Below, piece by piece: positions 1 to 8,570 of a DNA stretch of 64,000 nt. Numbering within the stretch: the stretch's first letter is position 1; every line of letters begins with the position of its first letter. Both the position numbers and the translations under genes were made by a program. The notes beneath the pieces were generated by a model. The model saw only the letters and a list, made by a program, of their open reading frames with translations, did not search any database and was not told where the DNA came from. This stretch comes from Mustelus asterias (lineage: Eukaryota), in NCBI RefSeq assembly GCF_964213995.1, contig NC_135808.1, forward strand, positions 7,254,001 through 7,318,000, read 5' to 3'.

Positions 1-90
1 ATCTGCTTATTATCTCAGTGCTGGCCTTTGTGGTACTCGCTCTCATCCTAACTAAACTAATTTTTATTCTGCAATGCTGTGGACCACCAG
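1..90 (+). CDS. Gene A transmembrane exon (5' end outside window): LLIISVLAFVVLALILTKLIFILQCCGPP
   Basis: Frame starting at nt 3 is a long hydrophobic run followed by CC. It ends at a CAG|GTAATT donor (90|91) in phase 1, typical of IgSF TM exons. Confidence 0.75.
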
Positions 91-277
91 GTAATTATTC
101 TGAATTCAGCCTATTTTACAACAAGGCATGAATGACTATTTGTCTGAAGAATAGCATGGCTGATCTATGGCTTACATTGTTATACACTTACAATGTCTCT
201 GAAATAATCAGCATGATTAATAATTGCAGTAATACCAGTATTTCCATGAATGTTCTTATTTTCCAAAAGGAATTTTT

Positions 278-555
278 AAAGTTAAATGTTTATTTATTAG
301 TCACAAGTAAGTCTCACATTAACACTGCAATGAAGTTACTGCTAAATTCCCCTAGTCGTCACTGTCCGGCGCCTGTTAGGGTCAATGCACTTAACCAGCG
401 CGTTTTTCAGAATGTGGGAGTAAACCCAATCACCCAGAGGAAACCCGTACAGATATAGGGAGACTGTACACAGATAGCCACCCAAGCTGGGAATCGAACC
501 TGGGTCCCTGGCGCTGTGAAGCAGCAGTGCTAACCACTGTGCAACCATGCCGCCC
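278..555 (-). mobile_element. tRNA-derived SINE (HE1-related, AATAAATAAAC-tailed variant)
   Basis: Head GGTTGCACAGTGGTTAGCACTGCTGC...GGTTCGATTCC (A/B boxes); many copies in the window. Confidence 0.8.
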
Positions 556-655
556 ACTAGTTACGTTAAATTTAGAAAATTATTTATAACCTTGCATAAC
601 TTGAAGCTGCAAATATCATGGGTCGTGTCATAGGTATATATTAATTATATAGAAT

Positions 656-1700
656 AAACGGGAGAGTCAGGCCACTCGGCTCAACCAATCCATGCCGCTC
701 TTTATGGTCCATTCAAACCTCCTCCTAACTTTTTAAAATCTAAATGTATCGTTATAACCATTTATAACTTATTCCCTCATTTGCTTGTGTGCATTACCTT
801 ACGTGTGTCTATACGATTCGCATCAACCAGCCCCTGTGGTAACAAGTCCCACATTTTTACCAGCTTTTGGGTAATGAGGTTTCTTCTGAATTCCCTATCG
901 GATTTCTTTGCCACCATATTATATTGATGGCTTCTATTTATATACTTTCCCACAAGAGGAATCATTCTCTTCATATCCACTCCATCAAACTTTTCATAAT
1001 TTTTAAAGTCCTGTTTTCGTTATTAATTCGAACATTATTTTCCAAGAGAGGTGGGAAGGAGCCTCCCGATCTGTTCCTGATACCCATGAGGTTCTGGTAT
1101 CATTCTTGTATATCTTCGCCACATCCTCTCCAGTGTCTCTATATCATTTTCATAACATGCCCACCATAGCTATACTCTGCATTCTAAGTGCAATCTAACC
1201 AAGATTCAATGCAGGTTTAGCATAATTTCCCTACTTCCAATTTTCTCCCCCTAGAAATAACGGCTAGTATTTGACTTGCTTTGCTCATCTGTAGGCAATC
1301 TTTAGTGATTGATGTATTTGCACTGTGAAACCCTTCTGCTCCTGTACCCCACTTAGGCGTGCACCTTACAGGTAATAAATTACCTCCCTATTCTTCCTAC
1401 TAACATGTACCATTTTACCTTTAAATGTTGAAATGTATTTGCCAATTTACTTCCCTTTCTTCAATTTTATTAATATTCCTATGCAATTTGTTGGAGACCT
1501 CCTCAATATTAGCGATCTCCCAAAGTAGGGTCATTTAGAAATTGTGCGATTGATTCGAAAGCCAATTTGTTAATGTAAGCACCGAGCATCAGCGGTCTCA
1601 ACACTGATCCTTGTGAACTACAATTTTATTCATTCTGAATGACTGCTCTTTGATTCTACTCTCTGTTTTCTGGCTTGACGTCAGATAGCTTACCATTCTG
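656..1700 (-). mobile_element. Old CR1-type LINE 3' fragment
   Basis: ORF 777..980 resembles the CR1 ORF2 C-terminus (RRNLITQKLVKMW). Confidence 0.6.
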
Positions 1701-1850
1701 GCACCTATCCCCTAGCTACACATTTTCTGGTCTTGTTCATTAGTCCAGACAGCTTATCAATTCCTTTAGAAAATCCTGATAAATAACATCCATTCCATTG
1801 CCGTTCTTTGCTCTTTCTTTTACCTCCACAGAAAATCAAAGAGAAGACAA

Positions 1851-2335
1851 TAAGACCAAAAGACATAGGAGCAGAATTAGGCCACTCGGCCCATCGAATC
1901 TGCTCCGCCATTTATCATGGCTGATATTTTTCTCTTCCCCATTCTCCTGCCTTTATCCCATAACCCCTGATCCCCTTATTAATCAAGATCCTATGTATCT
2001 CTGTCTTCAAGACACTCAATGACGTGGTCTTCACAGTCTTCTGTGGCAAAGAGTTCCACAGATTCACCACTCTCTGGCTGAAGAAATTCCTCCTCATGTC
2101 TGTTTTAAAGGATCATCCCTTTAGCCTGAGGTTGTGCCCTCTGGTTCTATTTTTTTCTACTAGTGGAAACATCATCCCACGTCCGCTCTATCCAGGCCTC
2201 GCAATATCCTGTAAGTTTTAATAAGATCCCCCCTTATCCTTCTAAACTATAACGAGTAAAGACTCAGAGTCCTCAATTCGTCCTCATACGACAAGCTCTT
2301 CATTCCAGGGATCATTCTTGTGAACCTCCTCTGGA
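1851..2335 (-). mobile_element. CR1/HER1-type LINE 3' end
   Basis: ORF 1915..2097 RRNFFSQRVVNLWNSLP; simple-repeat tail at 1851. Confidence 0.85.
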
Positions 2336-6291: not shown

Positions 6292-6411
6292 AAGCCCACT
6301 GCACCTGGTTTTCCCAGAAAATCTCCCATCCAAGCACTAACTAGGCCTGAGTCTGCTTAGCTTCCGAGATCAGACTAGATTGGGCATTTTCAGTAGCGTA
6401 TGGCTGCAGGC
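6292..6411 (-). pseudogene. Full-length 5S rRNA pseudogene
   Basis: Reverse complement reads GCCTGCAGCCATAC...CTGATCTCGGAAGCTAAGCAG..GGCCTAGTTAGTGCTTGGATGGGAGA...GTGGGCTTTT, a 120-nt 5S copy with scattered substitutions. Confidence 0.9.
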
Positions 6412-6879
6412 TGCATATGTAGACTGCATTCTCTGCGAATCGTCTCCAGCAAGGCATTTCAGCTCCAGCTGTTACTTGTGCCGTGTAGTACAGGGCTGCG
6501 TTGACACTCGCAAAGTTGAGACTCAGTTGGGTCTTTCGGCTCAGCGCTGTGGGCTTAAACTAAACTTCAGTCTCGAAGGTGACAGAGTGCTGACCTAATG
6601 GAACTACAAAATCTTTCGTGCAACCGATTACGAATTCAAATTGAGATTTTCTGTCCTGAACGTAATCGACAGCGCCGAATTGGGGAAACATACTGATCAG
6701 TTTACCAGCTAACTGTGTCCAATTGCCACGATGAACGCCAACTGGTCACTGGAAAACGAAACTCATAATGATTGTATGGCGAAATGTCGCGAAAGATTGC
6801 TTTAAATGTGCTTTTTTTCGGCAATAGCCAGGAAGAGAATCTCCTTTTTATAATATCACTAACTTTTGCATAACCCTAT

Positions 6880-7335
6880 TCATAGAATTGTTACAGTGCA
6901 GAAAGAGGCCCATTCGGCCCATCAGGTCTGCACCAACCCTCCGACAGGACATCTTATTCAGGACGCCCCTCCCCATCCAATCTCTGTAACTCCATTTACT
7001 TACCCCCACGAATCCCCCGAACCTACACACCTTTAGACACAAAGAGGCAATTTAACGTGGCCATCCACGTAACCTGAAGATCTTTGGACAGTAAGGGGCA
7101 ATTTAGCATGGCCAATCCATCTGACCTGCACATCTTTGGACACTAAGGGGCAATTTAGCAGGGCAACTCCAACTAACCAGCATATCTTTGGACTGTGGGA
7201 GGAAACTGGAGCACTGGAGGAAACCCACGAAGACACGGGGAGAACGTGCACACCCCACACAGTCACCCAAGGCTGGAACCGAACCCGGGTCCCTGGTGCT
7301 GTGAGTCAACAGTGCAATCCACTGCAAATATGCTG
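6880..7335 (-). mobile_element. HE1-type SINE with internally triplicated core
   Basis: Three copies of the GGCAATTTA(G/A)C..GGC core unit. Confidence 0.75.
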
Positions 7336-7802
7336 CTGTGAATGAAGCTATGGAAATTATTTTCAGTATATCATGGAACACTGAACACGGCTCACTTGTT
7401 TTAATTTGTTTAGGGGATGTGGGCGTCGCTGTTCGGCCAACATTTATTGCCCATCCCTAACTGCCCTTCAGAAGGTGCTGGTGAGCTGCTCTTTTGAACC
7501 TCGGAAGTCCCTGAGGTGTAGGCACATCCAGAGTGCTGTTAGGGATGGAACCAAATCCGAAATAAATATCAGAATATGCTCACAATGGGTATTTGCACAA
7601 ACCGTCGGGGTTTGAAGCAACATTGGTTTCTCTGCATTGTACTTGCGTTGTGAGAAAGAGACCTTTCAGTCGAAACCAATACCAGTGGCTCAGTAAAATT
7701 AAACATGAGTGATACTGCAATATCGTTTGTATCCTTCACAACCTGGGTGATCAGATCGCCCTTCTTATGAAATTTTGGAAGAAATTATCTGCTTAATTCA
7801 TC

Positions 7803-8274
7803 AGGATGTTGCCTGGTCTCGAGGGTGTTGGAAATGAGAAACGGTTGGATAAACATGGATTATTTTCACTGGAAAGACGGAGGCTGAGGGGAGACCTGAT
7901 AGAGGTCTACAGAATTATGAGCGGTGCAGGCAGGGTGGATAGTCAGAGGCTTTTTCCAAGGGTGGAAGCGTCAATTACAAGGGGGCACAGATTCAGGGGG
8001 AGAGGGGGAAAGTTTTAGGGAGATGTGCAGGGGAGGTTTTCCCGCAGATACTGATGGGTGTCTGGAACGCGCTGCCAGATGAGGTGGTGGAAGCAGGCAC
8101 ATTAGTAACATTTAAGAGGCATCGGGATGGGTACAGGAATAGGGAGGGAATAGAGGGGGACGGACCGAGTAAAGGCAGAAGGGTTCTTCTTCTTTTAGTT
8201 CAGGCATCATGATCGGCGCGGGTTTGAAGGGCCAAAGGGCCTGTTCCTGTGCTGTTCTTTTCATTGTTCTTTGT
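7803..8274 (+). mobile_element. CR1 LINE 3' end
   Basis: ORF 7806..8018 [24 protein letters not shown] tail. Confidence 0.85.
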
Positions 8275-8285
8275 GCTAATTTAAG

Positions 8286-8570
8286 GAGGAAGACACGTCG
8301 GAAACTCTCGTCTATGCAAAACTGAACATCAGCTGCCCGCCTACTGATAGGACTGTGTATGAGAGGGCGAGGGCGCCGGTTCAGAGTAAAAAGCCAAGAG
8401 AGACTCGGGCGGCGCCACTCCCAGACAGCAGTGGAGAATCTGTTGTGTACGCGTCATTGCGGAAGCCCGGTTACAAGAAGGAATCAATTCGGGTGGAGCC
8501 CGTGCAGACCCGACGAAGGAATGAAGAGCAAACCGTGTACGGGATAGTGAGAGTAGAACATAGAACATAG
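8286..8570 (+). CDS. Gene A last coding exon: inhibitory cytoplasmic tail EEDTSETLVYAKL...TVYERA...SVVYASL...TVYGIVRVEHRT*
   Basis: Acceptor ttctttgtgctaatttaag| at 8285. Open 94-aa frame (extends ORF 8355..8570 upstream) that is GC-rich and non-repetitive. Contains ITIMs LVYAKL and VVYASL and ITSM TVYGIV. Confidence 0.8.
   Translation, partial: EEDTSETLVYAKLNISCPPTDRTVYERARAPVQSKKPRETRAAPLPDSSGESVVYASLRKPGYKKESIRVEPVQTRRRNEEQTVYGIVRVEHRT

Follow-up and report, generated by a model that had tools for sequence, protein, structure and literature searches.

Gene A, whose 3' exons lie in the 64,000-nucleotide stretch of Mustelus asterias DNA analysed here (the window), is an NKp30/NCR3-family gene and, judging from its sequence, probably encodes an inhibitory NKp30 paralog that recruits SHP-1 and SHP-2. 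The predicted full-length product is a 283 aa type I receptor, read from an open frame across five GT-AG exons. A sequence-only reading had proposed an inhibitory-type ITIM/ITSM tail on a shark transmembrane (TM) receptor, and this proposal is upheld by homologous tails in horn shark and bamboo shark proteins and in a paralog from the same cluster. Both the NKp30/NCR3 family and its MHC linkage have already been published; gene A is a new member of that family, and the surprise is moderate. We found no description of an ITIM-bearing shark NCR3 in the literature searched, and we do not claim its absence from print. To our knowledge, NKp30 is the only NK receptor with a traceable line between sharks and humans; the human receptor is activating.

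Family identity and genomic position

The family assignment is grounded in the sequence and fold match of the V domain and in the AIF1/PRRC2 locus. Gene A has a single V-set domain, with V and J in one unsplit exon (Pfam V-set, E 5e-13), and retains the invariant Cys, Trp and Cys as well as the Gly-x-Gly of strand G. Against the PDB, the top four sequence matches of the Ig domain are human NKp30 (E 1e-10; next 7e-7), and a predicted model of the domain (pLDDT 87.7) has NKp30 at ranks 1-4 in Foldseek and at ranks 1-3 in VIA-align. In the fold comparison NKp30 superposes on the model over 113 residues with Z 16.1 and rmsd 2.8, ahead of the next family at Z 13.9. In a further search NKp30 was the best single-domain match, three multi-domain antibody constructs scoring higher by summing domains. 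By sequence and by fold, then, the V domain is nearest to NKp30. Broader searches were less productive: the V exon alone gave 0 of 152 candidates in a word-based protein search, a two-shark profile recovered its own 2 members only among 5,740 candidates, and a 25-row profile, run on proteins of 516-2000 aa only, returned 11 unrelated multi-Ig proteins.

Gene A lies among 13 NKp30-type V exons. On the contig carrying the window (C8, whose numbering is used for exon positions outside it), AIF1 (7.63 Mb) and a PRRC2-family gene (7.70 Mb) lie 40 and 120 kb past the last V exon. This is the MHC class III site beside AIF1 and PRRC2A, the flanking gene being distinguished as PRRC2A, and not PRRC2B/C, by position only. 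All 140 of 140 MHC class I matches fall on the same contig as gene A; a search for the DDAH family gave no match. In its single-exon VJ Ig domain, multigene cluster and MHC linkage beside AIF1 and PRRC2A, gene A resembles the shark NCR3/NKp30 family, reportedly described by Kinlein et al. in 2021. According to the supplement of PMC10751288, PRRC2A, AIF1 and NCR3 lie together in the white shark, where NCR3 forms a cluster of five, and eight nurse shark NCR3/NKp30 genes (MT914154-914161) are cited in PMC12227049. A V-domain tree places gene A with paralog Z (its nearest), both shark homologs, and genes C and D of the cluster with support of only 93/91; this tree is not settled (correlation 0.972), and human NKp30 is absent from it.

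Orthology to PD-1, another CD28-family gene, SIRP or NITR was already disfavoured, and we regard it as extremely improbable. One V domain followed by a TM segment and an ITIM/ITSM tail is indeed the layout of PD-1, and SIRP-alpha is among the weaker matches of the Ig domain. However, NKp30 tops both the sequence and the fold matches, and gene A sits at the AIF1-PRRC2A site, the NCR3 locus. Its motifs, with Val at -1, depart from the PD-1 tail consensus, (I/V)(D/E)YG(E/V)L(D/E)F and (T/V)EYATIx(F/Y), in which -1 is acidic (PMC12151841). Gene A also has neither the Pro-containing FG-loop motif of CD28/CTLA4/CD28H (the Pro-rich FG loop of CD28 and CD28H) nor a YMN/YEDM-type tail motif. An initial comparison with PD-1, Siglecs and SIRP-alpha thus stands for how the tail would work, but not for the identity of the gene, which is of the NKp30/NCR3 family. 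PD-1, SIRP-alpha, Siglecs, NITRs and CEACAM1 all have tandem tyrosine motifs for SHP-1/SHP-2, as predicted for gene A, although they belong to other Ig families and other loci.

Human NKp30 is nearest to gene A in sequence and fold, and both are in MHC class III. The model predicts a helix at residues 71-77, at the site of the B7-H6-binding helix of human NKp30. Of the 11 human contact residues for B7-H6 listed in PMC3135353, 6 are identical in gene A and 2 (Gly51 and Phe85) in all three sharks. However, human NKp30 is a single gene with a TM Arg, CD3-zeta/FcR-gamma signalling and a short tail, whereas gene A is without this Arg and possesses a 94-aa exon of its own for the tail; the basic residue at the outer TM end and the short tail of activating (human-type) NKp30 are both missing. 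By these sequence features, gene A is classed as an NKp30 family member that is not of the activating type. According to PMC6514059 the human NKp30 tail cannot signal by itself, and according to PMC12272517 human isoform c carries an ITIM.

Exon structure and the flanking LINEs

The five exons of gene A are as follows.

C8:7247076-7247118, plus strand: leader exon, starting with ATG, upstream of the window
C8:7250380-7250733, plus strand: VJ-type Ig exon, 354 nt, upstream of the window
1 to 90, plus strand: 3' part of the stalk/TM exon (entire exon 138 nt, C8:7253953-7254090)
4800 to 4831, plus strand: micro-exon, 32 nt, phase 1 to phase 0
8286 to 8570, plus strand: last coding exon, 94 aa plus stop

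The leader, Ig and TM exon junctions have GT-AG sites in phases 1/1/1. Within the window, the splicing proposed earlier (90 to 4800-4831 to 8286) proved to be in phase, with GT after base 90 (phase 1), AG before 4800, GT after 4831 and AG before 8286. The frame is open from 8286 through to the TAG at 8568-8570, and the stop-to-stop ORF listing has the entire last exon open (8280-8570). The splice model is therefore correct as far as sequence can show, its junctions being predicted. The TM exon has a hydropathy of 2.86 over 19 residues, a homologous exon in paralog Z, and aligned stretches in the horn shark homolog (P0001) and in one (P0003) of the two bamboo shark homologs (P0002 and P0003).

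The micro-exon is needed for the last exon to enter the motif-bearing frame. Among 403 phase-compatible AG..GT candidates compared with the 11-residue horn shark linker, it came top (score 20; runner-up 13); against the bamboo shark linker it scores -3. Paralog Z has a homologous 38-nt exon with identical splice sites. Skipping the 32-nt exon shifts the frame and leaves an open 20-residue tail without a motif, ending in the last exon. Such a frame-shifting micro-exon may be likened to the long and short forms of CEACAM1. A second micro-exon for the 12 extra bamboo shark residues was also sought and rejected (best score 7 among 127 candidates). A short-read contig spans window positions 8245-8578 with 0 differences and may derive from the source sample; only 24 of its letters lie past the LINE junction, so it is not counted as bridging that junction. 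Two read runs (one sample, one study) continue through introns and are DNA-like. The read-set search gave no RNA run with the gene A V exon, which says nothing on expression.

The last exon had been described as lying between LINEs, and it does so, on the plus strand at 7796-8277 and on the minus strand at 8555-9832.

7796 to 8277, plus strand: LINE 3' fragment, whose tail provides the pyrimidine tract and stops roughly 8 nt short of the acceptor AG
8555 to 9832, minus strand: 5'-truncated LINE that entered gene A within its last codon, with a 5-bp direct repeat at 8550-8554 and 9833-9837 (target duplication)
9838 to 9959, plus strand: displaced original stop and 3' end, with TAG at 9839-9841 and AATAAA at 9954

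The upstream fragment, which we take to be CR1-type, has up to 29 other copies within 314 kb, and 19 of the 24 LINE alignments ending near the acceptor stop at 8270-8277. Pyrimidines make up 21 of the 27 bases preceding this acceptor, which has A at -3 (a weak AAG) and depends on the LINE tail. Downstream, a reverse-transcriptase-like frame lies at 9134-9865, and candidate poly(A) sites lie at 9155, 9476 and 9954. The tail of the second LINE contributes four residues and the stop codon to gene A, and the host flanks across the element read Val-Arg-Val-stop, which is the ending of the horn shark protein. This insertion is a datable example of a retrotransposon providing a host stop codon.

With LINEs at both ends of the last exon and a micro-exon that can be skipped, gene A might be decaying or be made mostly without its motifs. 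The weak acceptor, the LINE inside the last codon and the open short tail produced by skipping point in this direction, as does neighbour Z, whose TM and last exons are broken, so that genes in this cluster do decay. However, all five exons of gene A are open and in phase, and the tail aligns to that of the horn shark over 88 residues with zero frameshifts. Moreover, the LINE left every tail motif intact, with an in-frame stop four codons on, and dN/dS for the V exon (gene A versus paralog Z) is 0.47. We consider decay, or a mostly motif-free product, quite unlikely.

Tyrosine motifs of the tail

The tail of gene A is about 105 residues long and, behind the TM helix, carries two ITIMs and one ITSM, as in ITIM/ITSM receptors. 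Motifs were defined as (S/I/V/L)xYxx(I/V/L) for the ITIM and TxYxx(V/I) for the ITSM, following PMC12151841. An original count of four tyrosines has to be revised to five (Y199, Y214, Y244, Y252 and Y274), three of them in true motifs.

8307 to 8324, plus strand: ITIM 1, LVYAKL (Y199); Tyr in 4 of 5 homologous tails, replaced by His in horn shark
8352 to 8369, plus strand: TVYERA (Y214), non-consensus, a lineage-specific Tyr; Cys in P0001, P0002, P0003 and paralog Z, absent from paralog D through a deletion
8442 to 8459, plus strand: ITIM 2, VVYASL (Y244); ITIM in paralog D, Ser in horn shark
8466 to 8483, plus strand: fifth tyrosine (Y252), outside any motif; Tyr otherwise in horn shark only
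8532 to 8549, plus strand: ITSM, TVYGIV (Y274), the conserved core motif; hydrophobic residue at -1

LVYAKL and VVYASL match the ITIM consensus and TVYGIV the ITSM consensus, as first proposed, and Val occupies -1 in all three. TVYERA, put forward as an ITSM-like variant, has Ala at +3, fits neither consensus and is kept in 0 of 5 homologous tails. Y252 was absent from the earlier list of tyrosines. Three motifs in this tail exceed chance: when the 94-aa exon was shuffled 100,000 times, as many were reached in 152 cases, and exactly three occur in 6 of the 2,713 open frames of at least 50 aa in the 314-kb region, two of these six being the tails of gene A and of a paralog. Three further frames, with 12-16 motif matches, are microsatellite.

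Against 1.84 billion proteins, the last exon matched homologous tails at E 2e-9 to 3e-6, with identities of 46% (P0001), 38% (P0003) and 39% (P0002). A fourth match (P0004, E 6e-4) was set aside as a repetitive metagenome protein. At full length, 155 of 279 residues (56%) are identical to horn shark XP_067865303.1 (NCR3-like at NCBI) and 133 of 277 (48%) to a bamboo shark homolog. The horn shark protein and bamboo shark XP_043533738.1 and GCC33668.1 (uncharacterized) share with gene A their domain order and length, a conserved V-domain CxxC and a matching C-terminal tyrosine motif; of the five tail tyrosine positions of gene A, one to three are tyrosine in these proteins, and gene A has four additional, LINE-derived C-terminal residues. 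As queries of the genome, the gene A tail found only itself (61 candidates scored) and the paralog D tail found itself and gene A.

The tails compared were P0001, P0002, P0003 and paralogs Z and D, a set outside which the nurse shark NCR3 tails fall. The expected conservation of the tyrosine motifs in related sharks is borne out only in part: the Tyr is kept at Y274 in 4/4 full tails, at Y199 in 4/5, at Y244 in 3/4, at Y252 in 1/4 and at Y214 in 0/5. Only Y274 is kept within a valid ITSM or ITIM in 4/4 full tails; at its -2 position, both bamboo sharks have Ile and paralog D has Val in place of Thr, giving a plain ITIM. At the Y244 site, both bamboo sharks have Tyr with Pro at +3. Paralog D has three ITIMs, and three motif positions are common to genes A and D; the horn shark homolog retains one motif only, and the bamboo sharks are without a strict second ITIM. 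In the sequences compared, the three-motif state is not general among sharks.

This pattern bears on whether gene A is instead a switch receptor, whose C-terminal ITSM would bind a SAP/EAT-2-type adaptor in SLAM-like fashion, with cell-dependent output and the ITIMs as later additions. Y274 is the sole motif in 4/4 full tails and the only one in the horn shark, and it has the hydrophobic -1 residue required for SH2D1A binding and absent in PD-1 (PMC12151841). On the other hand, the bamboo shark and paralog D substitutions at -2 leave a plain ITIM, and SAP in this genome is an assumption. We judge a switch receptor to be unlikely.

Predicted function and the paired cluster

The SHP-recruiting, inhibitory role that we favour can be set out as a candidate mechanism. 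Gene A, with all five exons intact, belongs to the NKp30/NCR3 cluster of the shark MHC class III region and encodes a leader, one VJ-type Ig domain and a short stalk, followed by a membrane helix that carries no adaptor-binding charge close to its outer end and by the long tail. These features, like the motif content and its conservation, are observed in the sequence; the steps that follow are predicted. From general ITIM/ITSM biology, engagement of the ligand where an NK or T cell makes contact would lead a Src-family kinase to phosphorylate the tail tyrosines; a B7-H6-like ligand is a guess from the family. The tandem SH2 domains of SHP-1 or SHP-2 are predicted to dock with Y274 as the anchor; the second contact would be either Y244, at a distance of 30 residues, or Y199. 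The docked phosphatase would damp signals from activating receptors, plausibly those of adjacent Lys/Arg-bearing NKp30 paralogs. PMC12151841 describes SHP-1 and SHP-2 binding sites as conserved across jawed vertebrates. An SH2 search of the genome gave 89 matches, none assignable to SHP-1, SHP-2 or SAP.

In the membrane stretch, K167 is followed by five hydrophobic residues. Were it to pair with an ITAM adaptor, gene A could be a dual receptor of the NKp44 type, mainly activating, with modulatory ITIMs. K167 falls within the top-scoring 19-residue hydrophobic windows; horn shark, bamboo shark and paralog Z all share this Lys, and NKp44 itself has both a TM charge and a putative ITIM (PMC6514059). 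However, the residues after the Lys are polar in both bamboo shark and paralog Z, which marks it as the inner border of the helix, and the membrane charge near the outer end is found in genes B, C and F instead. We hold an NKp44-type receptor to be very unlikely.

Points that count against this account of gene A are K167 in the membrane stretch, the single motif of the horn shark and the missing strict second ITIM of the bamboo sharks, the LINE-dependent acceptor and the second LINE in the last codon, the poor match to the bamboo shark linker, the few B7-H6 contacts shared by all three sharks, and the broken state of paralog Z.

Two neighbours of gene A lie within the window.

29965 to 31538, plus strand: gene B; VJ exon at about 29965-30315, TM exon carrying a Lys close to the outer end and a same-exon stop
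46499 to 51995, plus strand: gene C; VJ exon at about 46499-46819, TM exon carrying an Arg close to the outer end and a same-exon stop

With their membrane Lys/Arg and short tails, genes B and C are predicted to be of the activating type, the exon linkage of gene B being taken from order and strand. Just past the window end lies gene D, the ITIM-bearing sister of C; their V domains are identical at 75 of 107 residues (70%; tree support 100/99). To judge by these features, B and C beside the ITIM-bearing A and D form a paired-receptor layout, and, as in known paired-receptor families, sisters of predicted activating and inhibitory type (C and D) are adjacent. Inhibitory-type members have been noted in sharks and in the MHC-linked XMIV genes of Xenopus.

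A broader reading, which we offer tentatively and which assumes that the arrangement is not already published, is that sharks keep NKp30-built paired receptors in MHC class III, activating ones with a TM Arg/Lys and a short tail and inhibitory ones with an ITIM/ITSM tail, that read common B7-H6-like ligands, and that mammals, in retaining a single activating gene, lost this balance. The tail of gene A would then be under rapid tuning (a single motif in the horn shark against three in gene A), with the micro-exon perhaps acting as a switch between a braking and a tail-less form. An MHC-linked shark cluster with inhibitory-type members and a 70%-identical C/D pair provides concrete test genes; the question for that pair is whether paired NKp30 receptors and B7-family ligands may underlie NK-type tolerance in the oldest adaptive immune systems.

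Exon structure of gene A and its flanking LINEs

Gene A, an NKp30/NCR3-family receptor gene, consists of five exons, all with GT-AG borders and in phase, which together encode a product of 283 aa. The splice path 90->4800-4831->8286 proposed in the sequence-only reading was borne out in the sequence, in both its sites and its phases: the donor GT that follows base 90 is in phase 1, the 32 nt micro-exon stands between an AG and a GT, and the acceptor AG directly ahead of 8286 leads into a frame that stays open to a TAG at 8568-8570. The window corresponds to G000:C8:7254001-7318000, and a leader exon (43 nt) and an Ig exon (354 nt) lie 5' of it. 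The TM exon measures 138 nt, and at window position 35 within it the assembly and short-read contigs differ by one synonymous A/G.

Gene A exons and adjoining LINEs (window positions)
1-90, 3' part of the TM exon
4800-4831, micro-exon
7796-8277, plus strand, LINE fragment
8286-8570, last exon
8555-9832, minus strand, LINE with a reverse-transcriptase-like frame

The linker from the TM exon to the last exon is 11 residues long, as it is in the horn shark homolog, and 4800-4831 was the best of 403 phase-compatible micro-exon candidates compared with that linker (score 20; runner-up, 13). Against the 23-residue linker of the bamboo shark it scored -3. Paralog Z, a related gene 25 kb upstream, has a homologous micro-exon with identical splice sites. 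Skipping of the micro-exon in gene A would yield a 20-residue tail without motifs, a predicted form only.

The last exon does lie between LINEs, as had been noticed, and repeats occupy 2,992 of window bases 1-8,570. The plus-strand fragment, which we take to be of CR1 type, ends approximately 8 nt ahead of the last-exon acceptor and provides its pyrimidine tract. The minus-strand element interrupts the last codon of gene A. Identical 5-base stretches (8550-8554 and 9833-9837) border this element, and its flanks spell Val-Arg-Val-stop, just as the horn shark protein ends; the present end of gene A, four residues and a stop codon, is contributed by the LINE tail. Elsewhere in the window, a long open reverse-transcriptase-like LINE frame (54352-56030, minus) sits beside an N stretch, which suggests a young insertion.

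Family identity and tail motifs

The shark NCR3 family and its MHC linkage are already published, and the horn shark homolog is already named NCR3-like at NCBI. Inhibitory-type relatives have been noted in sharks and Xenopus. A literature search that did not extend to the three most relevant papers found no paper on ITIM/ITSM tails in shark NCR3, which does not imply their absence from print. For human NKp30c, two reviews disagree about an ITIM (PMC12272517 versus PMC6514059).

The Ig exon of gene A holds unsplit V and J parts and matches Pfam V-set (E 5e-13). Human NKp30 provided its best four matches among PDB sequences (E 1e-10; next, CEACAM1, 7e-7). With an AlphaFold model of the domain (pLDDT 87.7), NKp30 chains took ranks 1-4 in Foldseek and the top three places in VIA-align (Z 16.1 and rmsd 2.8 with 113 aligned, against Z 13.9 for the next entry). 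PD-1 is disfavoured because its acidic -1 residues are missing from the gene A motifs (PMC12151841), and CD28/CD28H because the FG loop lacks their Pro motifs (PMC11599192). A CxxC in the C'-C'' region (L002:6282-6632) is present in gene A, Z, horn shark and bamboo shark and in 0 of 21 other aligned V domains; it is possibly an extra disulfide marking the gene A subfamily. When alignments were read by eye, six of the 11 NKp30 residues contacting B7-H6 (as tabulated in PMC3135353) were identical in gene A, five in horn shark, four in bamboo shark and two in all three, and a B7-family ligand is plausible on these residues.

A search with the tail exon among 1.84 billion proteins gave four matches, three of them from sharks. 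From leader through C-terminus, gene A is identical to the horn shark protein at 155 of 279 positions and to the bamboo shark protein at 133 of 277.

Shark tail-exon matches (database gene models)
Horn shark, XP_067865303.1, 280 aa, named NCR3-like (NCBI)
Bamboo shark, XP_043533738.1, 294 aa
Second bamboo shark, partial model

Using the ITIM/ITSM consensus in PMC12151841, LVYAKL (Y199) and VVYASL (Y244) fit ITIM and TVYGIV (Y274) fits ITSM, as first read; TVYERA (Y214), first read as an ITSM-like variant, matches neither. The count of four tyrosines was also wrong, a fifth (Y252) having been overlooked. Three motifs were reached in 152 of 100,000 exon shuffles. Among 2,713 open frames of at least 50 aa in the surrounding 314 kb, six had exactly three motifs, two of these being real tails; three additional frames with 12-16 matches were microsatellite.

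Conservation was scored against five homologous tails (horn shark, both bamboo sharks, paralogs D and Z), with Y244, Y252 and Y274 scored on the four reaching the C-terminal end. Y274 (4/4), Y199 (4/5) and Y244 (3/4) were conserved; Y252 (1/4) and Y214 (0/5; Cys in four tails, deleted in one) were not. Paralog D has valid ITIMs precisely at Y199, Y244 and Y274. Bamboo shark site 199, with Thr at -2 and Leu at +3, is intermediate between both consensus forms, site 244 there has Pro at +3, and the ITSM is the sole motif kept in horn shark. The conserved design is thus of up to three sites, the last one core, rather than four.

Paired layout and MHC linkage

For the neighbours, exons were grouped into genes on the basis of their order and strand. 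Genes B and C, within the window, encode a Lys or Arg close to the outer end of the TM helix, with a stop inside that exon, and gene F has a Lys likewise placed. B and C thereby share the layout of human NKp30, whose TM Arg pairs with CD3-zeta/FcR-gamma (PMC6514059). The V domains of C and D are identical at 75 of 107 residues (70%; dN/dS 0.94; tree support 100/99), and judged by their exons these genes would form the clearest activating/inhibitory pair of the cluster.

Genes C and D
Gene C, window 46499-51995, TM Arg, short tail
Gene D, just past the window, G000:C8:7320373-7337550, uncharged TM, three ITIMs

Paralog Z (G000:C8:7221850-7237150, L003-L005) shares 85 of 117 V residues with gene A and has an Arg at the outer TM end; its TM exon carries a SINE with a stop eight codons in, the donor is lost and the last exon is frameshifted. 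It would appear to be either a pseudogene or a tail-less decoy. The uncharged TM exons of genes E (C8:7367641-7368400, minus) and G (7140500-7147020, minus) each close with a donor site, so more tail exons are expected; none were found. Lys167 of gene A, near the inner TM end, probably marks the membrane border, since polar residues follow the Lys in bamboo shark and Z.

Contig C8 carries 13 related V exons at 7.147-7.585 Mb and 11 more at 20.4-21.2 Mb (47 matches in all). AIF1, on the minus strand at 7.625 Mb, and a plus-strand PRRC2-family gene at 7.705 Mb flank the first cluster, which is the NCR3 locus of MHC class III; the white shark locus runs PRRC2A, AIF1, then five NCR3 genes (PMC10751288, supplement). 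In PMC12227049, where eight NCR3 sequences from nurse shark are cited, NCR3 is treated as a VJ gene that does not rearrange and is linked to the MHC. The MHC class I domain matches, 140 in number, all fall on C8, 139 at 21.6-43.4 Mb, many in near-identical blocks, and one at 3.66 Mb; the former interval thus holds a large expansion of class I-like genes. Directly ahead of this main block lies the second NKp30-like cluster (20.39-21.17 Mb, 11 VJ exons), where two VJ exons stand in tandem pairs spaced about 2-3 kb apart, suggesting two-domain receptors.

Proposed function of gene A

The anatomy, family, synteny and motifs of gene A are established here. By analogy with established ITIM/ITSM biology, the receptor would contact its ligand, a Src-family kinase would phosphorylate the tail tyrosines, the tandem SH2 domains of SHP-1/SHP-2 would dock on the tail, and ITAM signals would be damped. 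SHP binding sites are reported as conserved across jawed vertebrates in PMC12151841. The same paper notes that SAP binding requires a hydrophobic -1 residue, and Y274 carries one; it is therefore viable, if improbable in our estimation, that the ITSM binds a SAP-type adaptor, so that the receptor could activate or inhibit. We favour the inhibitory reading, in which gene A, a real gene from a known family, probably functions as an inhibitory receptor, within a cluster that has the anatomy of paired receptors.
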